Positions 1-28,637 of a stretch of 46,275 nt of DNA are shown here, one piece after another (position 1 is the first letter of the stretch; every line of letters begins with the position of its first letter). The notes beneath the pieces were generated by a model. It was not told the origin of the DNA and did no database searches. It saw only the letters and a program-made list of their open reading frames with translations. This stretch comes from an uncultured Verrucomicrobiae bacterium. Lineage in GTDB: Bacteria; Verrucomicrobiota; Verrucomicrobiia; Chthoniobacterales; JAATET01. The DNA is taken from assembly GCA_963719495.1 (NCBI GenBank), contig CAVRCI010000016.1:1-46275 (forward strand), given 5' to 3'. Made by a program: the position numbers and the translations under genes.

Positions 1-873
1 GTTTCAATCCGCGCGCCCGTGAGGGCGCGATCCCGGTGGGAGCGAGGCCGTCTCGTCGCTCACGTTTCAATCCGCGCGCCCGTGAGGGCGCGACCTCGAA
101 CGCCTCCCGGTCACCCAACAAGCCGCTGTTTCAATCCGCGCGCCCGTGAGGGCGCGACATCCGCTCGCGATCTTTCGCTTCACGTTGTCAAAGTTTCAAT
201 CCGCGCGCCCGTGAGGGCGCGACCTCTGATGGCCATCCCGGCGGCGTCGTTTTCCGAGTTTCAATCCGCGCGCCCGTGAGGGCGCGACCAATTTCCATGT
301 CCTGCACGATCGTTGGAGTAGGGTTTCAATCCGCGCGCCCGTGAGGGCGCGACCGCGCCAGTTACCATTCACCTGCTGCGACGTCAGGTTTCAATCCGCG
401 CGCCCGTGAGGGCGCGACTCCGAGCCTCTTGCGATCGGCATCAGCCGATAGTTGTTTCAATCCGCGCGCCCGTGAGGGCGCGACCTGTCGCTTGAACCCA
501 TGTCGAATCACGAGGTCAGCGTTTCAATCCGCGCGCCCGTGAGGGCGCGACCTACGGACAGACTACACGCAGACCCAAGATTGGTGTTTCAATCCGCGCG
601 CCCGTGAGGGCGCGACCACGCTGGCGAACAGCACGCCGCCGCTGGGACTGTTTCAATCCGCGCGCCCGTGAGGGCGCGACTGAGCGAACAGGAGGCTCGC
701 GGATTCTCGTTCGTGTTTCAATCCGCGCGCCCGTGAGGGCGCGACCAGAGATCGCAGAATCGACCGGCTGAACGACTCGTTTCAATCCGCGCGCCCGTGA
801 GGGCGCGACTTCGAGTTTGCGGCGATGGTCCAGGCGTGCCGCGTTTCAATCCGCGCGCCCGTGAGGGCGCGAC
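1..873 (-). CRISPR. Type I-C CRISPR array, 14 repeats / 13 spacers
   Basis: 31-bp repeat GTTTCAATCCGCGCGCCCGTGAGGGCGCGAC starts at 1, 64, 128, 193, 258, 323, 388, 454, 521, 586, 650, 715, 779 and 843, with unique 32-36 bp spacers. The minus-strand form GTCGCGCCCTCACGGGCGCGCGGATTGAAAC has the I-C hairpin and ATTGAAAC end. The first copy has C>T at position 31 (possible trailer repeat). The array may continue beyond the window edge. Confidence 0.99.
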
Positions 874-1053
874 TGTGGGGAGGGTAACTGGTTGGGTGTC
901 AGGCTCCAGTTTCGATTTTTGCGCGAACGTTCTTTAACCCGGTTGGTTACGGGAACGTTTGCACGATTCGACTGTCAGAGAGCGTTCGCTCGCAGGGCTT
1001 TGCGGGCGTTGCGAATCCGTGAAGCGGTCGGTGATCGCTTGGGGTTCGCGGGG
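874..1053 (-). promoter_or_regulatory. CRISPR leader
   Basis: Non-coding 180 bp between the cas2 stop and the leader-proximal repeat. Contains GCGAAC.../...GTTCGC motifs of the kind seen in type I-C leaders. Confidence 0.8.
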
Positions 1054-1344
1054 TCAGATGATGAGGGATCCTTTTGGGTCGTAGGACGGTTTGGTGCCGT
1101 GATGTTCGACGCGACGGTCCCAATCCGCGCCGAGATTGTAGAAGCGGAGCGAGTCGTGCTCAAGGTCGACGATGGCGAGGAGGCGGGATCTCATTTCGAC
1201 CAGTTGCGCGGGGTTGACTTCGCATTCGAACACGGAGTTTTGCACTCGCTGACCGTAGTCGAGGCAGACTTTGGCGACGCGACGGAGGCGGCGGGCACCG
1301 CCGTCGGTGGAGGTGGCGACGTCGTAGGTGAGGAGGGTTTGCAA
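1054..1344 (-). CDS. cas2: CRISPR-associated endonuclease Cas2
   Basis: 96 aa with LLTYDV...[24 protein letters not shown]; adjacent to cas1 and the array; TTG start. Confidence 0.97.
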
Positions 1345-1391
1345 GGTGGTGGTTCGTTGTTGGTTATTGGTTGTTGGTTTGACGAGGGGGA

Positions 1392-2411
1392 TCAGCGCCA
1401 GAGGAAGGCGGGGTAGGCGTCGAGGTCGCCGCGGAGGTGGCGGGAGAGGAGGCGGGCTTGGAGAAAGGGGAGGAGGCCGAGGGTGACTTTCTCGTCAAGG
1501 AAGGGGTGGGTGATTTCGTCGCGTTTGCGCTCCTGCCAAGTGGTGAGGGCGAGCTTGCGCGGGTCGTCCCGGAGTTCGACGGCGCCGGTCTCGAGGGTGC
1601 GGAAGTCTTTGGCGGTGAGCTGGCGGCGGTTGAGGAGGGTGAGGGCGGCGCGGTCGGCGAGGACGGGGCGGAATTCTTCCATGAGGTCGAGGGCGAGGGA
1701 CGGGCGTCCGGGGCGGTCGCGGTGGAGGAAGCCGACGGCGGCGTCGAGGCCGACGGATTCGAGGGCGGAGCGGCAATCGTGCGCGAGGAGGGAGTAGAAA
1801 AAGGAGAGGAGGGCGTTGACGGGGTCGGTGGGGGGTCGGCGGACGCGCCCGGGGAAGGTGATGCCGTCGGTCGTGAGGAGACTTGGGAAGGCTTCGAAGT
1901 AACGGGCAGCGGCGTCGCCTTCGATGCCGCGGAGGCTGTCGAGGTCGGGGGCGCGGAGGGCGCGCTCGGCGGCGCGGGCGAGGGTGGTGGCGGCGGTGGT
2001 GAGGGCGGCGGATTCGCCGTGATCGCGGAGGCCGCGCTGGAGGACGGTGCGGCCGTTGGCGAGTTTGGCAGCGATGATTGGGCGGGCGATCTGGAGGGAG
2101 AGGTCGGGGTCGTCGGAGGCTCGGTATTGGGCGCGGCGGAGGAGGACGTTGCCGGGGGTGAAGCCGCGGACGGCGGCGAGGAAGCGACCGTTGGGGGTGC
2201 AGAAGGAGAGGGTGACGCCGGCCTCGGCGCAGGCGGCCATGAGGGGAACGCTGGCTCCGATCTCGTAACCGAGGGCGACGATGCCGTCGAGGTTGTGGAG
2301 GGGAACGCGCAGGAGGGATTGGCCGGATTGGCGAACGTCGACGGCGGCTCCGTCCTTGGCGAGGTAGACGTCGTCGCGGGTGACGAAGAGGGTGTTGAGG
2401 TGGGTCTTCAT
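1392..2411 (-). CDS. cas1: Type I-C Cas1
   Basis: 339 aa; [63 protein letters not shown]. Confidence 0.98.
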
Positions 2412-2588
2412 GCGGGGGGAGTTGAGAGTTCTTGGTTGAGAGTGAATGCCTTGGGATGAACGATCGACTTATGCCTCGGGGATGGGGGTCGCGTTTGCAC
2501 CATCTAGACTGAACATCGGAGGCTGGGAAGCCTCGGGGTCGACACGGGTTCGGCGGTGCCCAAGGGCCAGAGGGCGGAAGCGACCGAG

Positions 2589-3224
2589 TCAATTGACAGG
2601 ATTGACGATTAAGAGGGAGGTGGTGAGTTGGCGTTCGAACCACTTGGAGGCGGTGGGGCGCTGAGTGAGCCGGGGGAGGCAGTCGTCGATGAGGGAGCAG
2701 GCGGCGCATTTTTTCTTTTCGTAAATGGCGGGCGGGGTTTCGCGGCTACGGATCATTTGGTGGAGACGATCCGCGAGGGTTTCGGTGAGGGTGCGGAGAT
2801 CGGCGTCGAGGGCGACGGTGGTGCGGCGGCGGGTCTTGCCGTAGTAGAGGTGACCTTCGGGGATGGTGACGGTGAGCATTTCCTCGAGGCAGAGGGCCTG
2901 GGCGCAGAGTTGAACTTCGTCGGCGCGGTGGGACTTGGGTTTGCCGCGCTTGTATTCGACGGGGATGACTCGGTCGTCGCGGTGGAATTCGATGACGTCG
3001 GCTTGCCCGTGAAGGGCGAGGCGCTCGCTCCAGAGGTCGAGGCCGCGGGTGGTGCGGAGGCCGGGGCGGGATTCGGTGGGACCTTCGTGGGCGCGTTCGT
3101 GGAGGACGCGACCGGCGGCGGTGAAGAAATTCTCGGTCCAGAGGCGTTCGACGTGGATGAGGGCGCACTGGCGCTCGCAGTAGAGGAGGTGCTGGAGCGC
3201 GGAGATGGGGAGGGATTCGGTCAT
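2589..3224 (-). CDS. cas4: CRISPR-associated exonuclease Cas4
   Basis: ISALQHLLYCERQCALIH, ADVIEF, PVEYKRGK, QLCAQALCLEEM and C-terminal CAACSLIDDC Fe-S motif. Start taken at ATG 3224. Confidence 0.96.
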   Translation of the reverse strand: MTESLPISALQHLLYCERQCALIHVERLWTENFFTAAGRVLHERAHEGPTESRPGLRTTRGLDLWSERLALHGQADVIEFHRDDRVIPVEYKRGKPKSHRADEVQLCAQALCLEEMLTVTIPEGHLYYGKTRRRTTVALDADLRTLTETLADRLHQMIRSRETPPAIYEKKKCAACSLIDDCLPRLTQRPTASKWFERQLTTSLLIVNPVN

Positions 3225-3322
3225 GGTTGTCGCGCGCAAACCGCAAATGGGGCGAGGGAAATGAGGATTGACCGCGGATCTCGCAGATTTACGCGGATTG
3301 GGAATGCGGGGGGATGGGGAAG

Positions 3323-4229
3323 TTAGTCCACGGTGTAAGGATCGGGTGGCCAGCCGGTTGGGAGGCGGTCGTAGACGGCGGTGTGGGCGCGGACGGTGGC
3401 GGGTGGCTCGGCGGCGCGGGCGGCGCGTTGGGCCGCGAGGGTGTCTCGGTCGAGGTCGGCGCGAAGTCGGTCGGTTTCTCCGCGTCGTTTCCGGCGGTCT
3501 TCTTCGCGTTGGATTGCCGCGGAGGGGTCGTAGTCGGGGGCGTCCTGGTCTTCCGGTCGATCACCGAAATCGACGATGTGGATGCGGGGGAAGGCGTATT
3601 GCCAATCGGCTCCGAGGGATCTGAAGTCGCCGGAAAATGAGGGCGTAGACCGGCGTGAGGTCGGCGCGACCGCTGATGAAGGCGGTGCCCATGTAAAAGC
3701 GCAGATAGTCGGAGCGATCCCAGGAAGACCACAAGTCATCGGGGTCGTCGGGAGGCGGAGGCGTCGGGCCATATTCGAGAAAATCAGCGAGGAATCCGCC
3801 GCTGCCCCGAAACGAGCCGAGCGAGACGATGCGGCCATCGGCGGCGATGACGTCGTGGTTGTCGGAGAAAACGTCCCAGAGGCACTGGCCGAGCAGGTCG
3901 GCGAATTCGTCTTCGTCGGTTGTTGGGGGGGCTGGCGTCGCGGGTTTCGCAAGTTGGTCGGCCTCTTCATCGCGGATGAATTGCTCGAAGGACGGGGTGG
4001 GTTCTTCGATTTCGGCAGGTGCCAACTTGGAGCGGAAACCTCGCATCCGCTCGGCGAGGCGGACGTGTTCGGCGTAGCGTTGCTCAGCGGTGGGATGAAG
4101 GGCGTGGTGGAGCGGAGAGGCGGACCAGCCGTCGGGGCAGAGTTCGGCCAGGAGCGCGGGGTCGCGGAGTCCGGCGGGGAAGAGGCGGGCGAAGAAGGCA
4201 AGGGCTTCGTCGTTGGATAGCTCTTCCAT
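3323..4229 (-). CDS. Uncharacterised protein inside the cas operon (~301 aa, one frameshift near 3624)
   Basis: ORF 3561..4229 (…CLWDVFSDNHDVIAADGR…YMGTAFISGRADLTPVYALIFRR) continues as SLGADWQYAFP…GWPPDPY in the frame ending at 3323. Removing one A at 3624-3625 fuses them. Either a pseudogene or a sequencing indel. Confidence 0.75.
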
Positions 4230-4250
4230 AATGCGGGGCGGGTGGACGAG

Positions 4251-4760
4251 TCAGTCGAGGGTGAACGGCTCGGGGTTGGGTGGTTGGCGATTGGGCGTTG
4301 TGAGCGGCGAGGAGTAGCGGGCGTTGTAGAGGTAGAGCAGTGCGGCCCATCCGCTTGGCATCATGCACGGCGCATGATCGAGTTCGCGAGCGGCTTGGAT
4401 GGCGAGTTCCAGCATGGCTCGGGCGTGGAAGAAGGCTTCGAGAATCGGGCGGGTCTCGGCCAGCCAGTTCTCGTTGGATTCCATGGTGAACTCGTTACCG
4501 GTGCCTTCCGTGATGATTTGTTGAAACCAGGGATTGAGATCGCCGTCAGGATTGAAGGTGCGGAGCAACGAGACGATTTGTTCGGTGCTACGCTGGAGGC
4601 CGAAGACTTTCCAACTCTGATGATAGAAGCGGTAGAAGCCGTCTGGAAACTGCCAGTGGCCGTTGACTTCATCGAGGAGTTCCTCGAGGTCGGGAAGGCG
4701 TTCTTTAATCCGCTGAAGGAGCGGCTCGGATTCCTTGTCGATGCGCTTGGCGAGGTCCAT
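4251..4760 (-). CDS. Uncharacterised protein inside the cas operon (169 aa)
   Basis: Protein-like composition (FYRFYHQSWKVF, TRPILEAFFHAR, PSGWAALLYLYN); 9 bp downstream of cas7, same strand. Confidence 0.85.
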   Translation of the reverse strand: MDLAKRIDKESEPLLQRIKERLPDLEELLDEVNGHWQFPDGFYRFYHQSWKVFGLQRSTEQIVSLLRTFNPDGDLNPWFQQIITEGTGNEFTMESNENWLAETRPILEAFFHARAMLELAIQAARELDHAPCMMPSGWAALLYLYNARYSSPLTTPNRQPPNPEPFTLD

Positions 4761-4769
4761 GGCGGTTCG

Positions 4770-5717
4770 TCAGATTCGGCGGATCAGGGTGATGCCGTTG
4801 CCGAGGTCCTTGGATTCGCCGGATTTGACGACTTCGTCGAGCGGTTGGCCGTCGAAGGTGACGCGGCTCGCGTAGGCGGAAAATTTTCGCGGCGGCTTGC
4901 CGTCCTCAGCGGGCGAGTCTTCAAAAGATTTGATTCGGAGGCGGTCGAAGAGGGTGTGGCTGGGCGCTTTGCCGAGCTGGTTTTCGTGTTTGAAGATCAG
5001 CAAGCCGCGAGGGGCCATGCTGCCGGCGGGGCGGGCGGCGGACTGATCGAACTGGAAGGCGTTTTCGAGGGCGGTGAAGAAGAGTTCGAGATCATCCTCC
5101 GAGAATCCGGTTTGCTCGGCGAGGAAGGGATTCACGAAGCCGTGGGTCTGGTAGAGCGCGTAGGGGACGGTGAATTTGCGGCCCATTGTGCGGTTATCGC
5201 CTTGCTGGGATTCCGCTTCTTTCTCCGTGGCGACGGCCATGCGGGTGATGGCGTGTTCGTTCACGACGATGGGATCGACCGAGCGGGAGAAGCCGAGTTG
5301 AATGGGGCCGCGGACCTGGCCGCAATTGACCGCGATACTCATGACCGCGCCGAAGGTGCGGACGTCGTAGAAATTCTGACACATCCACTGGCGAGCGGCG
5401 TCGACTTCTTCCCCGCTGCCTTTTCGCTTACCGACTTTGGTTTCGCTCGGTTCTTCGCCGTCTTTTTTGATGGCTTGGTAGGCTTTCTCGTGGGAGCGGA
5501 TGAGGACGGATTTTTCCTTCACGTAGATGTCGTAACCGGCAGCGTCCTTTTTAACGACTTCGACGAAGTTGCGCACCTTGCGTTTTAAACAGACGTCGGT
5601 GATGAGGCCCTGGCCGGATTCGGTGTCGACGCGGGGGAGGTTGCCGGCGTCGGGGTCGCCGTTCGGGTTGGCGTCCTGGGCGTCGAAGAGATAGATGAAG
5701 TCGTAGCGATTATTCAT
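4770..5717 (-). CDS. cas7c: Type I-C Cas7 (Csd2)
   Basis: [59 protein letters not shown]. Confidence 0.97.
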
Positions 5718-5753
5718 GGTTGGTGGTGGGTGTTTGGAAGTTGAATGACGAGG

Positions 5754-7544
5754 TTAGGCGGCGGCGGGTTGGGGTTTGGCTTCCTTCTTGGTGAAGAAAT
5801 CTTTGCGCTGGTGGTAGTAGCCGAGGGCGAACTGGGATTGGTCCTGAAGATTGAGGTGAGCGGGGAAATCGCTGAGCGTTGAGAGGATTTCCTGGGTTTG
5901 CTTTTCGCGGACGATTTTGGCTCCGGTGTCCAGTTTGCCGAGGTGGTGTTGGTAGGTGCGGAGGAGTCGACCGAAGACGGCTCGCGGGGTGGCGGAGGCG
6001 CTGGCGTAGAAGCGGTCGCGAATGGTGGCGTTGATGCCGGGTAGGGCGTCTTGTTGAGCCTTCTCGAGCACGGCGAAGAGGCGACCGAGGCGGTAGCCGG
6101 GGGTGATGTTCGTTTCGTCTAGCATGGTAGTGACGGGTTGGTGGTGGTTGCGGATGAGCCAGGCTTTGAGGATGGCGGCTTTGAAGTAGGTGACATCGCG
6201 CTCGGCACGGATGCGGTTGAGAACGGCGGTGACCAGGCTGGTGGGGTAGTTCGTGCCGAGGAGAATGGCCCGCATGAGCGCACCGCCGAGGAGGGGCGGG
6301 ATTCCATCGGCTTCGCGCGCGGTCTGGCGGAGAAGCTGGTAGGAGGTGGGGTGGATGGGTTCGGGCTTTTTGGAATTCCCCTCGTCCCACTGGCGGATCA
6401 GTTGGAGGTGATCGAGGTGGCGTTTGAGGTTGCCGATGAGTTCGCCGAGATGACCGGTGTGCCAGAAGCGGACGGAGAGGCGCGAAGCGTTCGGGGAGAG
6501 ACCGAGGATGTGGTAGGAGACGGCGGGATCGCCGAGGTCGTCGCGGGCGAGGGTGCCGCGGGAGATCTTCTCGAGGACGTCGTGGACGCGTTGTTTGGTG
6601 CATTCGTCCTCCGACTCCGGCACGCCGGACATCATCCACGGGAGGAGGGTCTCCGCTGGGGTGGGTTCGGCGGTCCAGAAGACGGCGGTCGCGTCTCCGA
6701 TGCGGAACCGGCGGTCGCGCCGGGCGAGGAGCCAGTTGAGCGCGTTGCAATACGCGAAAGCGGTCTCTTCGGAGACCGGTGAGTTGAGTCCCTGTTCTTT
6801 ACCGAGCGAAGTGAAGGCTCCGAGGTTGAACGAGACGAGCTTGGCACCCGAGCTTTGCGCCCCGGCGACGCCCTTGATGGCCGGATCATGGAGGAGGGCG
6901 AGTGGCGCGTGATCGCCGGTGACGAGGCAAAATCCCTGGTCGCCTTTGGGTGACTCGGAACTTTGCTCCCGCCACCAATTCGCGATGGCTGGAGCCTGAT
7001 GGACGTATTTGAGATTTCCCGAGATTTGGAAGACTCCGAAACCGGAGGTGATTTCCGAAAGAATGGGGTGCGCCTGGGCGTCGTCGGGTGACCAGCGTTC
7101 GAGGAATCGACAGACGCTGGAAAAATCGGGATCGGAGATCCTCGTCTCGCACTCGAGGTGGCGCGTTCTAAAGGCTTCGAACGAGGCGTGGACGCGGGTC
7201 TTTTCTTTGTGGCGTTCCGACTCCGATTTCTTTGGGTCATCGGGTTTGAAGCCGAGCAGGTAGCCGGTGTTGTCCCACAGAAAGCAGGGATTGAGGCCTT
7301 GGCCGGGAGGTTTGGCCTGCCCGGGAACCAGAAGTGAGAAAGGACGGGAACTTCTCTTTTCCTTGCCGTTCTTTCCGATCTCGACGGTTTCCGTGCGGCA
7401 GGGTTGGACTTCGACGGGGGTGCCGTCCGGTTGGATGACGACGCAGAAGCTGATATTTTGAAGACTATACCCAGAGGTTGGGAGGCCGTTTTCCGGATCC
7501 GAAGAAAGCCGCCGATAGAGGTGGTCGAGGGATTGGAGGATCAT
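5754..7544 (-). CDS. cas8c: Type I-C large subunit Cas8c (Csd1)
   Basis: MILQSL start, FLWDNTGY, CLVTG, KLVSFN, LGLSPNASRLSVRFW, YRLGRLFAVLE, FALGYYHQ. Confidence 0.96.
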   Translation of the reverse strand: MILQSLDHLYRRLSSDPENGLPTSGYSLQNISFCVVIQPDGTPVEVQPCRTETVEIGKNGKEKRSSRPFSLLVPGQAKPPGQGLNPCFLWDNTGYLLGFKPDDPKKSESERHKEKTRVHASFEAFRTRHLECETRISDPDFSSVCRFLERWSPDDAQAHPILSEITSGFGVFQISGNLKYVHQAPAIANWWREQSSESPKGDQGFCLVTGDHAPLALLHDPAIKGVAGAQSSGAKLVSFNLGAFTSLGKEQGLNSPVSEETAFAYCNALNWLLARRDRRFRIGDATAVFWTAEPTPAETLLPWMMSGVPESEDECTKQRVHDVLEKISRGTLARDDLGDPAVSYHILGLSPNASRLSVRFWHTGHLGELIGNLKRHLDHLQLIRQWDEGNSKKPEPIHPTSYQLLRQTAREADGIPPLLGGALMRAILLGTNYPTSLVTAVLNRIRAERDVTYFKAAILKAWLIRNHHQPVTTMLDETNITPGYRLGRLFAVLEKAQQDALPGINATIRDRFYASASATPRAVFGRLLRTYQHHLGKLDTGAKIVREKQTQEILSTLSDFPAHLNLQDQSQFALGYYHQRKDFFTKKEAKPQPAAA

Positions 7545-7550
7545 GGCGAC

Positions 7551-8300
7551 TCAGGCTGTGGTGGTCGCCAGAGGCGGAACGGTCAGGATGCCGTTTTCGA
7601 GCTGGGCCTTGAAGAAACGGGGTTCGGCGCGGACCCGCTTGCCTTGGCCGGTGAGGAAGCTGTCCTTCGTTTTTTTGTCAGCCGGAAGGTAGGCGATGTC
7701 GTGGAGCATCCAGCCGAGGTCCTTGTCGAGTTGCTCGGGCGGAAGGGCGCTTTCCGGAGTCGGGGCGTCGGACTCGAGGAGGGTGAATCGGGCGGGGAAC
7801 TCCCGGTTGCCGAGGCTGGGTTGGTGAAAGCATTGTCCGGTGCGGGCGCGACGGTTGAACATGTCGAGGTGCTTGCCGGCGCATTCGTTGGGCGGGATCT
7901 CGGGTCCCTTTTTCTCGAATCGAAAGTCGAGGATGTCAAAGTGCGCTTCGATGAGGTAGGCGACGTCGCGCAGGAGAGTGGCGGCTCGCTGCTGACGGGT
8001 CTTCGGGTCATCGGCCATGATCCCCATGAGCGACACCGTTTCGCCCTTCATCGCCGCCGCGGTGGGGGCGGAGGCTTTGGCGCCGACTTCGTTGCGGCGG
8101 ACGTTGGTGAAGCGGATGGGTTTGAGGACGTGGATGCGGTCGATGACCCAGCGGATCTGCGGCTTCCAGTAGATGGCCTCGATCAAGCCGCGGGCGGCGG
8201 ATGGCGTGATGACGTCATACGAGACGCGTTCGACCTTCATCTCGGGCCGGGTGAAGCAGGCGAGATCGCCGCTGACGTGGAGCTTGATGCCGTAGGACAT
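7551..8300 (-). CDS. cas5: Type I-C Cas5 (Cas5d, crRNA processing)
   Basis: GDLACFTRPEMKVERVSYDVITPSAARG, GQCFHQPSLGNREF, DLGWMLHD. Confidence 0.97.
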   Translation of the reverse strand: MSYGIKLHVSGDLACFTRPEMKVERVSYDVITPSAARGLIEAIYWKPQIRWVIDRIHVLKPIRFTNVRRNEVGAKASAPTAAAMKGETVSLMGIMADDPKTRQQRAATLLRDVAYLIEAHFDILDFRFEKKGPEIPPNECAGKHLDMFNRRARTGQCFHQPSLGNREFPARFTLLESDAPTPESALPPEQLDKDLGWMLHDIAYLPADKKTKDSFLTGQGKRVRAEPRFFKAQLENGILTVPPLATTTA

Positions 8301-8313
8301 TGCTAGAATAGCA
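8301..8313. promoter_or_regulatory. Palindrome TGCTA-GAA-TAGCA: candidate overlapping divergent extended -10 elements and RHH-antitoxin operator
   Basis: Plus strand reads TG-c-TAGAAT (8301-8309) toward the antitoxin. Minus strand reads TG-c-TATTCT (8313-8305) toward cas5, 4 nt before its ATG. Confidence 0.5.
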
Positions 8314-8348
8314 TTGAATTGATGGAGGAGTGGTTGCAGTTTGCAGTC

Positions 8349-8600
8349 ATGCCGACTCTGACCATTCGCGGTCTTCCTGATGAGACGTATGCGCGACTGA
8401 AGGTGGCTTCACTTCGGCACCGGCGAAGTTTGAACCAGGAGGTCATCGCGCGGTTGGCGGGTGAAGCTGCGCCTGATGACGGCGGGAAAAAAGCGAGGAT
8501 CGAGGAGAGGCTTCGCTTGGCGGCGTCTTTTCGAGAAGGTCTGAGCACGTTTTTGAGCGCCGAGGAAATTGATCGGGCGATCGAAGACGGGCGGCGGTGA
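8349..8600 (+). CDS. FitA/Arc-like ribbon-helix-helix antitoxin
   Basis: MPTLTIRGLPDETYARLKVASLRHRRSLNQEVIARL is an RHH signature; C-terminus IDRAIEDGRR; lies upstream of a PIN gene. Confidence 0.9.
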   Translation: MPTLTIRGLPDETYARLKVASLRHRRSLNQEVIARLAGEAAPDDGGKKARIEERLRLAASFREGLSTFLSAEEIDRAIEDGRR

Positions 8601-8673
8601 TGCGGGCGCTTCGGATTGGGGGATCGATTCATCTTCCTTGTATGTATTCGAAACCAAGGAACGAGTGTCAATC

Positions 8674-9084
8674 GTGATCGTAGCTGACGTGACCGCCTTG
8701 GCGGATTTGCTCATCGGAAAAGGGTGTGAAATGCAGGCCGCCGAAGCGTTGGTGCGGGAGGATCCGGATTGGATCTCCACCAGCCTGTGGTGCCATGAGT
8801 TCGGAAACGTGATGTTGAAGGTTCATCGACACGGGGATGTTCCGATCCAAAATCCGGAGGAACGTTTCGAGTTGGCGAGACGGTCGGTTCAAGAAACGGT
8901 CGAAATCGACGCGGCCGAGGTCTGGCGGGTGTCGGTATCGTCGGGTCTGTCGTTTTACGATGCGGGTTACGTGTGGTTGGCCCGCGTACGCAAATTGAAA
9001 TTGCGGACTCGAGACCGCAGAATTCTCCAGAACTGTCCGGATGTTGCGGAACCAATGCCGCGGATCGACGCGGAGGAGCCGTAG
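8674..9084 (+). CDS. vapC: PIN-domain VapC/FitB-type toxin (136 aa)
   Basis: GTG start gives MIVADVTALADLL…LWCHEFGNV…GLSFYDAGYVWLA…LRTRDRR, with the PIN acidic residues conserved. Confidence 0.9.
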   Translation: MIVADVTALADLLIGKGCEMQAAEALVREDPDWISTSLWCHEFGNVMLKVHRHGDVPIQNPEERFELARRSVQETVEIDAAEVWRVSVSSGLSFYDAGYVWLARVRKLKLRTRDRRILQNCPDVAEPMPRIDAEEP

Positions 9085-9092
9085 GGAAGAGT

Positions 9093-9196
9093 GTCGCTCC
9101 GGAGAACTCCGGCGTGCGGATTGAAACCTTGTGATGTAGTCGATGAGGTTCGCTAATCGGGGTCGGTCGGAATTTAACCGACCGACTCCTTTGAAC
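9093..9196 (+). CRISPR. Solitary CRISPR-like unit (divergent repeat + 34-nt spacer + hairpin); candidate crRNA-like regulatory RNA
   Basis: 9093-9127 GTCGCTCCGGAGAACTCCGGCGTGCGGATTGAAAC shares the 5' GTCGC and 3' GCGGATTGAAAC of the array repeat and forms its own stem (CCGGA/TCCGG). Spacer 9128-9161. Then 9162-9196 GTCGGTCGG-AATTTAA-CCGACCGAC-TCCTTTGAAC. Confidence 0.8.
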
Positions 9197-11562
9197 CTAC
9201 GGGATGAACGCGTGCGGATCATCGGGTGCGTCTCGAGGCTTGAGTCCGGTGAGGGGGTGGTAGTCATTTTCCGGGTGATCGAGGATGGCGAAGGCTTCCT
9301 CGCAGTGAAGGCTGAGGAGGGGGAGAAGTTGGTGCCATTCGCTTTCGTATACCTGGACGGTGAATTGCTGGGCGCGCCGATAATGTCCACGATTCGGGGC
9401 GCGGTTTTGTTTTTTCAGATCACGGATCTCCTGGGCGAGGCGCCGACCTTGGCAACCCCAGGGGATGAGGACGGAATGGGTCTCGCTGTCGATGAGGCGG
9501 AAGCGTTCAGCGGCGGTCTTGTAGCGGTAGGTTTGGAAGTCCGAGGAGTTGGGGGGGAAACAGGCATCCCCCGAAACGATGTGCGGTTTGTCCCATTGTT
9601 CGGTCTTGGGGCCGGCTTGCCAGATGGCGTGCTCGAAATATGTGCGGATGAGATCGGGGTGAAGGAGGTCGCGATTTTCGAGGTTTGGGAGGATGTGCGA
9701 GCGGGTGATGGCGGCGTTGGTTGTGAGATCGGTGAGGCCTTTCGGAATCGGGTGGTCGCTGGGGGAGAACAGAAAGACGCGGCCCCGGTCGGGGAGGAGT
9801 TCGCCGTGGCGGTTGCAGCGGCCCGCGGCCTGGGCAAACGAATCGAGTCCGCATTCGGCGCGATAGACGACGGGGAAGCTGATGTCGACGCCCGCTTCGA
9901 CGAGCTGGGTGGCGACGAGGACGATTGGATGGCCGTGTTTCCGGAGCCGCTTGGCTTGGGCGAGCACGAGCGTGACGTGCCGGGGGCACATGCGGGCGGA
10001 GAGATGAAGGGCGATGGTGTGGCGGCTCAGTTTTTCGTGGAGGGTCCGAGCGGCCTTCGTGGTGTTGACGATGAGGAGGCAGCCGTTGGAGGCGTTCTCG
10101 AGGATATGGGAGATGAGTGTTTCGTCATCGAGTGAACCGAGGGTCTCGGAGACCACGCGTTCGAGGGCCTGGAACAGTGACGCGCGATCTCTCACGATTT
10201 CGGTGATCTCCGCGGGCGGGATGCCGATTTTGAAATCGTCGCGGCGTTCGAGGGCGGGTTGGGTGGCTGTGCAGAGAACGGCGGTCGAGCCGAGGTCGTG
10301 GACGAGGCAACGGAGTCCGCGGAGGATGGGATGAAGCAGGGAGGCGGGAAGCGCCTGAACTTCGTCGAAGATGACAACGCTGCGAGCGATGCGATGGAGT
10401 TTGCGACAGGCGCTCGTACGGTTAGCGAAGAGCGATTCGAAGAAGCGGACGTTCGTGGTGACGATCAGCGGGGCGTCCCAGTTCTCGGCGGCGAGACGGT
10501 TAAATTCGGTCTCGTTTTTCGGATCGAATTTGGAGTGGTGTTCGAGCACGAGGTCGCGGCCGAGTTCTTTCGATAGCGGGGCGAAGACGGAGCGAAAGAC
10601 GTCGGCGTTCTGCTTGATGATGCTCGTGAAGGGGATGACCAGGATGATGCGGCGATGCCCGTTGTTCAGCGCATGACGAAGGGCGAAGAGCAGGGACGAG
10701 AGGTTTTGCCGCCGCCGGTTGGGACCGTCAGGGAAAAGAAGCCGGTTTCTCGGTCGGCGGCGGAAACGCAGTCGCGGCGGACGATTTCGCGGGCTTGATG
10801 GACGGGGTCGTCGCCGGGTGAGGAGAATTTCTCCGTGATGTGAGACTCGAGGGAACGAAGCATGCGCTCGAGGATATCGTCGGGCCACGGTTGGCGGAGT
10901 TCGGTTCGTTCTGGTTGCATGAAGGCCTCGGTCGCAAGGAAGTCGGCATCGACGAGGCACGAGAAGACGAAGCGGAGGAGGAAGGATAGGCCGTCATTGC
11001 CCGCGTCGGGGCGGGTGAGCGGGGGTGTGGGTAACCTGGCGTCGAACGGAACGCCGGCGGCTGTCGCGTGGGTGCGCCATTCGTTGATCGGTTTGCCCAG
11101 GCGTTCGTTGAAGAGATAGGAGGCATCGGCGAGGCCGGCATGATGGCCCGCGATAAGATAGCTGAGAAGCGGGCCGAATGGGGGTAATCCGTGGGCGAAG
11201 ACGGCCCCGGCTGTGGAGTGGTCTTCCTTCTTTGCCGGGGTGCCGGTGCTTTCGGCGGTGTGGGGGTCGGATTTGGCCTCGAGGTAGGACTGCCACTCGG
11301 AAGCGAATTTTCCGAGGTCGTGCCAGAGGCCGGTGAGATGGCCCCATTGGCGGGCGGCTTCGCGGTCGGGGCCGGGGGGGAACATTTCGGCGGAGAATTT
11401 GGCGGTCCACCAGGCGACTTTGTTGAGGTGGCCGTGGCGAGGGTCGAGGGATTCGCAGGCGGCGCAAGGGTCGCCGGTGAGTGCAGGGCAGTCGGGGGTG
11501 AAGAGGGGTTCCCAGTGGTCCTTGGTCTTTCCCTCGAGGGTGTGGGCGTGGAATTGGGTCAT
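9197..11562 (-). CDS. cas3: Cas3 HD nuclease-helicase (~788 aa) with a 1-nt frameshift at ~10702
   Basis: HDLGK, IAGHHAGL, SCLVDADFLATE and PTGGGKT lie in ORF 10666..11562. LSSLLFAL, FDEVQ, CTATQP, VATQLVEAGVDISF and QAAGRCNR lie in ORF 9197..10960. One extra G in GG at 10702-10703 restores the frame. Confidence 0.95.
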
Positions 11563-27036: not shown

Positions 27037-28637
27037 CAGCCCGTCGGACTTGGAGCTGCCAGTTTGGCGGCGGATTTTGTTGGTTAAGTTAGGATTGGCG
27101 GTTGGCGAGCGGTTCGGAGAGTCCGATGACTGCCGAGGAGTCTGCGTGAGGAGTTGAGACCGGCTGCCATCATCCATGAGGGCGGGATAGCGGGCTGCTT
27201 ACGCCCTTGCGATCCTCATTCCGAGTCCGAAGAGGCGTTTGAGGTTGTAGGAGGTAGTGACCAATGACCATTCCAAGGCAGCCTTCTCTTTGCCGCGTAG
27301 GAGCAGGCGTCGGAATCCCATGGCTTCTTTGATAATGCCGAAGGCGGGTTCGACGGTTTGTTTGCGCAGGGCGTAAAGTTTGCGCCCAGCCGCGGTGGTG
27401 AGTCGGTGGGCCATGATTTCGGTAGGCGGAGCATCGGGTGGCGGTGCGGGCGGGTCGGCTCGGAGTTCCAGATCAGCAATTGTGCGCCCGTGTGGCTGGC
27501 GCTTTTGCGCGGCGTAAACTTTCGGGTTCCCGTCTCGGGCTTCCACGCTCGCAACTGCTTCCTGGCTGTAGTAGCCACTGTCGACGAGGACTTGGCTGAC
27601 GTTGCCGACGGTCGGGCTCACGGACTCCACTCCGGGTTGGAGTTGTTGCTTGTCGTTGGGTGCGTCGGTGAGATGGGCTCCGACGATGAGCATGGTGTCG
27701 ACCTCCACGGCGGCCTGCGCGTTGTAGCACTGCGCGAAGCCGCTTTTGTCTTTCATAATCCGGCTCTCGGGATCGGTGAAATTATATTGGTCCTTGGGAC
27801 GAGGGCCTTCGGTGGGCGGATCCGGTGCTTTGCCACGTGCTTTGCGACCGGTGCTCTGCTCGCTTCGTGCGCGGGCGGCGAGCTTTTCGGTGTGGGCCGC
27901 GCTTTCCTGCTCGAAGCGGACTTTGGCGCGAGCTTCCAGAGCGGCCTTGGCTTGCGCAAGCTTGGCCAGTCGATCCTCGCGACGTTTGATTTCCTGCGGG
28001 ATCTCCAGCCCGTCGGCCAGTAGTGGGGTGCTGTCGACATTCTCGGCTTTAGCCAGCAACTCTTGGATTTGCTCGCTGGCCAGCGTCATCTGCTCTTCGA
28101 TTCGACCGTGACTCATCGCGCTGTGGCGACTTGCGTTGGCCAGAAGCTTGGTGCCGTCCAGCGAGATGGTCAAATCTCCCACCTTCAACACTCCTGATCC
28201 TGCCGCCAGTTCAAGAACCTGATGAAAGCAACTGCTCAGCAGTTCCGCGTTCTCTCGGCGGAATTTGCAGATCGAGTCGTGGTCAGGATGGTGTCCAGCA
28301 CACAGGTAGCGCACGGCCACATTCTCGTGCGTGAGCGTTTCGATGCGCCGACTCCCAAAGATCCCCGTCGCGTAGCTGTAAATCAGCAACCCAAGCATCA
28401 TCGACGGCGGATACTGCGCCGAGCCCGTCCCCCGTTCGTTCTTCTTCGCCGCCCCAAGATTCAACGCCCCTACCGCGTCCATCACGAAATGAACCATGTG
28501 CCCTGCCGGAACCCAGTCCCGAAGGTCCGGCGGTAACAGTAGCGGGGTCTCATGATCGACGTTGACGTTTCTCACTGCCATCTTCCCTGTCTGCCAGGTT
28601 TCTTGGGTTTTGTCGCGCGTCTAAGTCCGACAGGCTG
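27037..28637 (-). mobile_element. IS1182-family insertion sequence
   Basis: Terminal inverted repeats CAGCC(C/T)GTCGGACTT begin at 27037 and end at 28637; CTAG flanks both ends (27033-27036, 28638-28641). Confidence 0.9.
27199..28581 (-). CDS. IS1182-family DDE transposase
   Basis: LLPPDLRDWVP…HPDHDSICKFR…LDGTKL…NFTDPESRIM…YNAQAAV…VDSGY…RKQTVEPAFGIIK. Confidence 0.95.
   Translation of the reverse strand: MAVRNVNVDHETPLLLPPDLRDWVPAGHMVHFVMDAVGALNLGAAKKNERGTGSAQYPPSMMLGLLIYSYATGIFGSRRIETLTHENVAVRYLCAGHHPDHDSICKFRRENAELLSSCFHQVLELAAGSGVLKVGDLTISLDGTKLLANASRHSAMSHGRIEEQMTLASEQIQELLAKAENVDSTPLLADGLEIPQEIKRREDRLAKLAQAKAALEARAKVRFEQESAAHTEKLAARARSEQSTGRKARGKAPDPPTEGPRPKDQYNFTDPESRIMKDKSGFAQCYNAQAAVEVDTMLIVGAHLTDAPNDKQQLQPGVESVSPTVGNVSQVLVDSGYYSQEAVASVEARDGNPKVYAAQKRQPHGRTIADLELRADPPAPPPDAPPTEIMAHRLTTAAGRKLYALRKQTVEPAFGIIKEAMGFRRLLLRGKEKAALEWSLVTTSYNLKRLFGLGMRIARA

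Follow-up and report, generated by a model that had tools for sequence, protein, structure and literature searches.

The window analysed here is an entire contig of 46,275 nucleotides (nt) (CAVRCI010000016.1, GenBank assembly GCA_963719495.1) of an uncultured Verrucomicrobiae bacterium, the source genome being a 16-contig draft of 4.5 megabases. A type I-C CRISPR-Cas locus was found to span positions 1-11562 on the minus strand, in the gene order array, cas2, cas1, cas4, two open reading frames (ORFs), cas7, cas8c, cas5d, an insertion on the plus strand, and cas3. This insertion between cas5d and cas3, with which the present work is concerned, consists of the antitoxin gene vapB, a 73-nt spacer, the toxin gene vapC and a 104-nt solitary repeat unit (9093-9196). 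Its parts, including a putative target site with its protospacer-adjacent motif (PAM), are as follows.

8349-8600, plus strand: vapB, ribbon-helix-helix (FitA-like) antitoxin gene with ATG start (Pfam PF22513, E 3e-11; tblastn in relatives)
8601-8673, plus strand: vapB-vapC spacer of 73 nt, holding the putative target
8634-8636, plus strand: TTC PAM
8637-8651, plus strand: partial protospacer CTTGT/ATGTA/T/TCGA (guide positions 1-5, 7-11 and 13-16 match; no base opposite position 6; mismatch at position 12)
8674-9084, plus strand: vapC, PIN-domain toxin gene with GTG start, its product having 136 amino acids
9093-9127, plus strand: degenerate repeat, with a stem-loop at 9095-9116 followed by an 11-nt handle, CGGATTGAAAC, at 9117-9127
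9128-9161, plus strand: spacer-like guide of 34 nt, CTTGTGATGTAGTCGATGAGGTTCGCTAATCGGG, its target match confined to the first 16 nt
9159-9196, plus strand: 3' hairpin (9159-9189; 12-base-pair (bp) stem, loop AATTTAA) and a short T-containing tail abutting the cas3 stop

The start of vapC was placed at GTG 8674 on the basis of an alignment in which six homologues begin with MIVVD at this point, and not at the TTG of a 171-amino-acid (aa) ORF as an earlier, sequence-only reading of this DNA had it. With this start the target site falls inside the 73-nt vapB-vapC spacer. Four acidic residues of VapC (D8, E45, D99 and D117) are invariant in the 7 sequences aligned, and the protein thus has the PIN domain with conserved acidic residues by which a VapBC toxin is recognised. 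Taken alone, the window VapC scores under the Pfam PIN threshold (18.8 versus 23.6 bits, E 0.0025), with no domain other than PIN being detected. When a profile was built from the VapC alignment, it hit the chains of PAE2754 and PAE0151 with E ~1e-15; both are named hypothetical proteins by their depositors, and we take them to be Pyrobaculum PIN-domain structures. No NCBIfam or PADLOC model matched VapB or VapC. Upstream of the pair, 48 nt lie between the cas5 start at 8300 and the vapB start at 8349.

The solitary repeat unit lies between the vapC stop at 9084 and the cas3 stop at 9197 (minus strand codon 9197-9199), and is co-oriented with the toxin-antitoxin pair and opposite to the array. 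Its repeat is degenerate, having a stem that differs from those of the array repeats and a 12-nt 3' end, GCGGATTGAAAC, that is identical to all 14 of them. This 12-nt sequence occurs 15 times in the window (14 times in the array and once in the solitary unit) against an expectation of 0.48. The predicted stem of the degenerate repeat (9095-9116) ends exactly 11 nt ahead of the guide, which is the geometry that Cas5d would need in order to leave an 11-nt handle. The length of the guide, 34 nt, is the modal length of the array spacers, which range from 32 to 36 nt as judged from motif coordinates and a 31-nt repeat. The sequence-only reading had described the two stop codons, the divergent repeat, the spacer length and the orientation in the same way. 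It had also described a hairpin at the 3' end, and a strong one is present at 9159-9189; as a second repeat, however, it does not appear to be real. Relatives of the unit have a GC-rich hairpin at the equivalent place, beginning ~30-35 nt past the handle and mostly followed by a T-rich tail, and for this reason the hairpin seems better read as terminator-like.

The stretch at 8634-8651 reads TTC-CTTGT-ATGTA-T-TCGA, as had been noted before, and fits the guide at positions 1-5, 7-11 and 13-16, with position 6 left unpartnered and position 12 mismatched. When a gap is allowed, this TTC-flanked site scores 14 of the 15 pairing positions among guide positions 1-18. Shuffling did not reproduce this: 200 shuffled versions of the window peaked at a score of 12, and a score of 14 was not attained in any of 20000 shuffles of the 73-nt spacer. 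An ungapped match to the guide was not found anywhere in the window. Nor was a second target found in the window, for example near the cas promoters. The runner-up, with 11 of 15, requires an insertion and lies within the range of the shuffles.

Relatives of the pair were then considered. Close relatives of VapC are few, forming 6 clusters at E values up to 1e-3 (best identity 59%), and the VapC alignment was scanned against species genomes (38 loci), metagenome contigs (80 loci) and the family and order of the window. Within the family a VapC match (E at most 1e-8) was present in one of 16 other genomes, which belongs to the same genus (locus L132), and within the order a VapC-family match was present in 72 of 401 genomes, a tally that includes one unpublished genome (G172). 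Among the 29 order-level loci examined (the window's own, L129, aside) the repeat unit was seen only in L132. Further afield, tblastn with the Cas, VapB and VapC proteins of the window showed that the order cas5 (minus), vapB (plus), vapC (plus), cas3 (minus) is common to many type I-C loci of Verrucomicrobiota, with embedded vapBC found in Opitutales, Haloferula, Rubritalea, Akkermansiaceae and Verrucomicrobiales. The full layout of cas5, vapB, target spacer, vapC, solitary unit and cas3 recurs in 22 distinct loci. The number of distinct vapC genes was 54, of which 52 had at least 150 nt of downstream sequence and could be classified. A unit was scored as a handle ATTGAAA[CT] within 300 nt after vapC, and a pair as embedded when next to cas5 or cas3, with the following result.

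Embedded, handle present: 22 of 52 loci
Embedded, no handle: 3 of 52 loci (L010, L011, L133)
Not scored as embedded, handle present: 3 of 52 loci
Not scored as embedded, no handle: 24 of 52 loci

The distance between vapB and vapC differs between these groups, being 58-149 nt in loci with a handle (n=24) and -4 to 76 nt in loci without one (n=25). In the latter group the commonest arrangement is a 4-nt overlap (11 of 25 loci), whereas the antitoxin gene of the window, although upstream of vapC likewise, is 73 nt away from it. A long spacer is thus associated with the presence of the repeat unit. Of the 23 units compared, 20 have GCGGATTGAAAC in front of the ATTGAAA[CT] handle, and the stems vary. 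The window, L009, L052, L059 and L132 have their target site only 16-37 nt away from where vapC starts. On the vapC strand, a TTGAC-like box resembling a -35 element begins 23-27 nt after protospacer position 1 in L015, L023, L024, L081 and others.

The evidence on which the interpretation chiefly depends is the covariation of guide and target across these loci, a check that the sequence-only reading had itself named. After removal of duplicates and of the truncated L075 and L076, 23 distinct units could be tested, namely 22 from a first comparison and the same-genus L132, with the window among them. An ungapped, TTC-flanked match of 11-15 of the 15 pairing positions (first 18 guide bases) was found within 200 nt upstream of vapC in 19 of the 23 loci. 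As for the remainder, the window needs a gap at position 6, and L068, L078 and L088 are without a site. L132 has a seed different from that of the window and an ungapped match. When guides were set against the upstream regions of other loci, scores were mostly 4-7 (mode ~6), with high cross scores only among related pairs. In a search of both strands that required no PAM and counted all positions, the best match was directly preceded by TTC and on the vapC strand in 18 of the 23 loci. The agreement along the guide in the 19 loci is given below.

Guide positions 1-5: 18-19 of 19 loci agree
Guide position 6: 6 of 19
Guide positions 7-11: 15-19 of 19
Guide position 12: 4 of 19
Guide positions 13-14: 17-18 of 19
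Guide position 15: 13 of 19
Guide positions 16-17: 10 of 19
Guide position 18: 2 of 19
Guide positions 19 onward: 2-7 of 19, which is background

With guide and target in register, agreement is seen in 248 of 285 pairing cells; sliding the target by 1-3 nt lowers this to 45-68 of 285. Each of the 15 pairing positions has changed on both sides among the 19 loci, and 13 different 5-nt seeds are represented. Such a variety of seeds, taken with the slide control, rules out that the agreement stems from a conserved motif or from chance. The pattern, in which five bases pair and a sixth is free, three times over and with no pairing after that, is the footprint that a type I effector (Cascade) leaves on a target of partial complementarity. 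Lying apart from the array, the unit at 9093-9196 derives from a repeat and has a handle and a hairpin suited to Cas5d; it shows PAM-proximal partial complementarity to a PAM-flanked site by a neighbouring gene, and its guide and target co-evolve with positions 6 and 12 left free. By its predicted mechanism it belongs with the regulatory RNAs that resemble CRISPR RNA (crRNA), known as solitary repeat units or as the CreA/CreR/crlRNA class.

Some of these loci have peculiarities of their own. In comparison with L014, L068 has a 4-nt AAAC duplication after the handle and a 1-nt shift in the target, with the result that guide and site misfit, and the pair appears to have decayed. In L018, from a Rubritalea metagenome-assembled genome (MAG), an additional repeat-like unit (6400-6510) with the handle CGGACTAAAAC and a 35-nt spacer precedes the vapC-targeting unit, forming a two-unit mini-array; no target for the additional spacer was found in the 12-kilobase (kb) locus. 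In L085 the target upstream of vapC is present as a tandem duplicate, one copy having the TTC PAM and the other being preceded by ATT. The Cas proteins and the embedded pair also differ in their relationships. Cas5 and the helicase part of Cas3 are ~80% identical to those of L019 and L081, whose VapC is only 34-39% identical to that of the window, while the best VapC match in the same tblastn comparison, L009 (52%), has a Cas5 of 61% and a Cas3 helicase part of 45% identity. It would appear that the embedded vapBC module either evolves faster than the Cas proteins or was exchanged relative to them.

It is probable that the unit is a gene of the CreA/crlRNA kind whose RNA directs Cascade to repress vapC, as the sequence-only reading had proposed for a CreA/CreR-type RNA; conserved layout, covariation, PAM and periodicity all speak for this proposal. 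For the family as a whole, a Cascade-vapC circuit is suggested with considerable confidence, and we lean towards the view that the window copy is still working. From the anatomy, the conservation of layout, the guide-target covariation, the PAM and the 6/12/18 periodicity observed here we infer RNA processing, Cascade binding, repression, toxicity and trigger, as follows. Cas5d would cut at the 3' base of the degenerate-repeat hairpin, giving an RNA with the 11-nt handle CGGAUUGAAAC (from 9117) and a guide ending in the terminator-like hairpin. Cascade (Cas5, Cas8c and Cas7) would load this crRNA-like RNA and bind the TTC-flanked site in the vapB-vapC spacer through ~14-17 PAM-proximal bp, which is presumably too few to license cleavage by Cas3. 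Bound Cascade would block transcription into vapC, and vapB, being upstream of the site, would stay expressed. As the target site comes after vapB, the antitoxin gene would lie outside this control and only the toxin gene inside it. Loss of Cascade, or its inhibition (as by an anti-CRISPR), would derepress vapC; VapC would then outrun VapB and its PIN nuclease would arrest the cell. The vapBC-RNA module would in this way guard or addict the Cascade genes.

A number of points weigh against this circuit. The pair in the window needs a 1-nt gap in the target opposite guide position 6, and no published statement that Cascade tolerates such a gap was found in the literature covered, which included a type I-C structure preprint. 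Three of the 23 units (L068, L078 and L088) are without a detectable target. The 19 covarying loci are related by ancestry, so that the counts are not those of independent events. A sigma-70 scan of the 73-nt spacer of the window gave no convincing promoter (best 6 of 12), and the promoter calls in relatives are weak, since the -10-like boxes of some of them fall on the ribosome-binding site. VapB, being kept, could neutralise VapC regardless of Cascade. In L010, L011 and L133, vapBC stands beside cas5 or cas3 with no unit, the vapB-vapC gaps being 25, 25 and -4 nt, so vapBC can evidently sit in a cas locus without RNA control. Finally, the frameshift in cas3 described below means that the locus may be decaying.

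The state of the surrounding locus bears on several of these points. The rest of it is composed as follows, all on the minus strand.

1-874, minus strand: type I-C CRISPR array, 14 copies of GTCGCGCCCTCACGGGCGCGCGGATTGAAAC, extending past the window start
1054-1344, minus strand: cas2 (Pfam)
1392-2411, minus strand: cas1 (Pfam)
2589-3239, minus strand: cas4 (Pfam)
3323-4229, minus strand: ORF of ~300 aa between cas7 and cas4, without Pfam, NCBIfam or PADLOC match
4251-4760, minus strand: ORF of 169 aa between cas7 and cas4, without Pfam, NCBIfam or PADLOC match
4770-5717, minus strand: cas7 (full-length Pfam match)
5754-7544, minus strand: cas8c/csd1 (full-length Pfam match)
7551-8300, minus strand: cas5d (full-length Pfam match)
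9197-11562, minus strand: cas3, HD domain and helicase, in two frames, with the stop codon at 9197-9199

The frameshift in cas3 lies directly after the Walker A motif GGGKT, at ~10695-10702 within the stretch 10690-10705, leaving the HD domain and Walker A in one frame and the remaining helicase in another, whereas the relatives L019 and L081 have cas3 as one ORF of 802-808 aa. The Cas3 of the window may thus be a pseudogene product while the Cascade genes are intact. A frame change is also present near 3620-3646 in the ~300-aa ORF. Elsewhere in the contig, the long housekeeping genes uvrA, smc, treS-mak and others (~15 kb) are unbroken. The indels are therefore concentrated in the cas locus, and the frame breaks are more likely to be real than to be general assembly noise. 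Two observations can be added here. Contig C7 of genome G000 carries a second array with the same repeat (3900-5870, ~30 copies), which may continue the array cut at the window start. An insertion sequence-type DDE transposase gene (DUF772 and DDE_Tnp_1) is situated among the housekeeping genes at 27202-28620 on the minus strand.

With no base opposite guide position 6 in the window target, repression may be weaker here or lost. It is accordingly conceivable, though we hold it to be doubtful, that the family circuit is real and the window copy impaired or dead, a 1-nt deletion having broken the register after a 5-bp seed and left VapC held only by VapB in a decaying CRISPR locus. That 19 of the 23 loci are ungapped, a gap being needed only in the window and L015, is consistent with such an event, as are the frameshifted cas3, the frame change in the gene between cas7 and cas4 (single-frame in its homologues in L021 and L056), the clustering of indels beside intact housekeeping genes, and the example of decay offered by L068. 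However, nine further pairing positions (7-11 and 13-16) match past the gap, where a dead pair would be expected to drift, and the Cascade genes, vapB and vapC are all intact. L015, from a Haloferula MAG, also argues against impairment, since in its vapB-vapC spacer the target has a 1-nt deletion opposite guide position 12 and yet positions 13-17 and 19-22 all match, giving nine more matches through position 22. The two deletions (position 6 in the window, position 12 in L015) are both opposite positions that are flipped out, and matching continues beyond each, which hints that deletions of this kind are tolerated. The 1-nt bulge about which the sequence-only reading had been cautious is peculiar to this genome, L015 being the only other locus in which one was seen.

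A second alternative to Cascade repression of vapC, or an addition to it, is that the RNA autoregulates the Cascade genes in the manner of CreR, Cascade in the spacer blocking transcription that comes from cas3 or an antisense promoter towards cas5 (cas5-cas8c-cas7 being downstream on the opposite strand). Autoregulation of the CreR type has been described for several type I subtypes, with elements of type I-C among them (10.1101/2023.03.10.532045). The 48 nt between the cas5 and vapB starts would leave little room for a separate cas5 promoter. Moreover, the strand with which the guide pairs is the minus strand, non-template where cas transcription is concerned, and in CRISPR interference with type I-E systems pairing to the non-template strand is the more effective roadblock orientation. 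On the other hand, the site in relatives is fixed relative to vapC, the -35-like TTGAC of L015, L023, L024, L081 and others beginning 23-27 nt past protospacer position 1 on the vapC strand; a long distance between vapB and vapC accompanies the repeat unit; and no cas promoter was identified. Autoregulation as the main or an additional role seems rather improbable to us.

It is unlikely that the 1-nt gap arose as an error of assembly or consensus and that guide and target in truth pair with no bulge. Such an error would be in keeping with the draft state of the genome (16 contigs) and with two further 1-nt frame breaks within 8 kb, but the ~15 kb of long conserved genes on the contig are free of frame breaks and the target site is not a homopolymer. 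The reading of the unit as an orphan remnant of a decayed array with a chance resemblance, or as an ordinary spacer against a mobile element, is hardly credible and, as far as can be judged from sequence, is refuted by the shuffles, the search without PAM and the covariation over 19 loci, even though an open frame can be read in the spacer's reverse complement (a remark of the sequence-only reading) and two viral contigs carry TTC with the 16-nt target motif. Both of these diverge past position 16 and were judged to be chance matches, a 17-base pattern being expected by chance in such a collection by our own estimate. Phage records gave only chance-level partial matches to the guide (E ~1) and none of full length, and in the viral contigs there were no exact matches to the full-length guide; the phage match that would have marked the unit as an ordinary spacer is thus missing from both sets. 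A phage-borne mimic was also looked for in the viral contigs, none of which has the handle together with the window seed.

Repression by Cascade through a crRNA-like RNA is a known principle, represented by CreTA, CrePA and CRISIS. The closest of these to the present locus is CRISIS, the type I-C CRISPR-supervised immune systems, which are controlled by solitary repeat units or crlRNAs lying between cas3 and cas5c of type I-C operons (bioRxiv 10.1101/2024.12.27.630466). Their RNAs have a handle of 11 nt and terminate within the loop of a 3' hairpin. The guides address sites flanked by TTC or TTA, to which they are mismatched at positions 6 and 12 as well as distally; these sites adjoin the -35 box of the embedded genes, and repression is 5- to 60-fold (10.1101/2024.12.27.630466). 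The units of Verrucomicrobiota answer to this account. The window has in common with CRISIS the non-cas genes between cas3 and cas5c, the conserved 11-nt handle and 3' hairpin in a solitary unit, the TTC-flanked partial target with mismatches at positions 6, 12 and the PAM-distal part, and, in several relatives, a target adjoining a -35-like box. The proposed role as a guard against loss of Cascade or anti-CRISPRs is also shared. The arrangement is different, however. In CRISIS the cargo is followed by the unit and then cas5c, and the target is directly before the cargo genes (10.1101/2024.12.27.630466), whereas here the module has the opposite orientation to the cas genes, so that the unit adjoins cas3 at its 3' end and is not ahead of cas5c, and the target is between the two cargo genes and not before the first. 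The cargo here is a classical two-gene VapBC, while the terms 'VapC' and 'PIN' are absent from the main text of the CRISIS preprint (the supplement lying beyond this coverage), and the hosts here are Verrucomicrobiota, those of CRISIS being mainly Neisseria.

CreTA, the CRISPR-regulated RNA toxin-antitoxin, is described from Haloarcula (type I-B) and from Acinetobacter and Pseudomonas (type I-F) (PMC8501985, PMC9458426, PMC12737573). As reported there, a degenerate mini-CRISPR whose repeat is altered in the stem and keeps the handle gives rise to a crRNA-like antitoxin, which guides Cascade to repress a neighbouring toxin by partial complementarity, and in all of this the present unit resembles it. 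The toxin of CreTA is a small RNA, whereas vapC encodes a 136-aa PIN protein, and membership in CreTA was rejected because the toxin is a protein. Further differences are the retention of a protein antitoxin, the subtype (I-C), and the terminator-like hairpin that replaces the second repeat. CrePA consists of a Cascade-repressed protein toxin with a KilA-N domain and a CreA (PMC12737573; 10.1101/2024.01.05.574328), and is similar in having a protein toxin repressed at transcription by Cascade and a crRNA-like RNA, with a proposed anti-anti-CRISPR role. Since Pfam finds PIN only and not KilA-N in the toxin here, assignment to CrePA was likewise rejected; the additional protein antitoxin VapB and the subtype also differ, 'I-C' being absent from the main text of the CrePA preprint (10.1101/2024.01.05.574328). 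The logic proposed here, in which loss of Cascade leads to an excess of toxin, is the one described for CreTA, CrePA and CRISIS (PMC12737573; 10.1101/2024.12.27.630466).

Free-standing VapBC pairs (L012, L013, L016, L049, L053-L058, L130, L131 and others) share the gene order and a homologous ribbon-helix-helix antitoxin and PIN toxin (30-50% identity), but in them the two genes overlap, by 3 nt in L056 and by 4 nt in the rest; they have no unit, and they were not scored as lying between cas5 and cas3. The sequence-only reading had regarded the layout as unfamiliar. This needs to be modified insofar as type I-C units repressing genes embedded between cas3 and cas5c are described in the CRISIS preprint (bioRxiv 10.1101/2024.12.27.630466), while for VapBC no case was found in print. 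More generally, no mention of control of VapC, VapBC or PIN proteins by crRNA-like RNAs was found in print, although the supplementary tables of the preprints, which were not covered, may list such loci. The points that are new are the VapBC cargo with its protein antitoxin kept, the target between antitoxin and toxin, the inverted orientation and the phylum Verrucomicrobiota.

On a more speculative level, the locus may represent a hitherto undescribed three-part toxin control in which VapB and an RNA-guided Cascade repressor act jointly on one PIN toxin by way of a dedicated inserted spacer. The window and L015 would then be natural evidence that type I-C Cascade accepts a missing target base opposite flipped-out positions, and the many seeds, together with the fast divergence of VapC, would reflect an arms race with phage RNAs that mimic the guides. 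We put this forward tentatively and think it somewhat doubtful as a whole. If it is true, tolerance of a missing base at flipped-out positions would widen the rules for Cascade binding and for off-target prediction, and in any case the two gapped pairs pose the biochemical question of bulge tolerance at these positions. The 19 natural guide-target pairs are a ready data set on the positions that type I-C Cascade needs for binding without cleavage.

The circuit suggested for these loci would extend CRISPR-repressed toxins from RNA toxins and KilA-N proteins to VapBC, the commonest toxin-antitoxin family, and to another phylum. It would mean that a two-gene module already in existence can be captured by a CRISPR locus through the insertion of a spacer under Cascade control between its genes. 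Having the antitoxin outside and the toxin inside the control of Cascade is a testable design by which Cascade would be guarded, with a threshold and perhaps reversibly, against anti-CRISPRs or the loss of genes.

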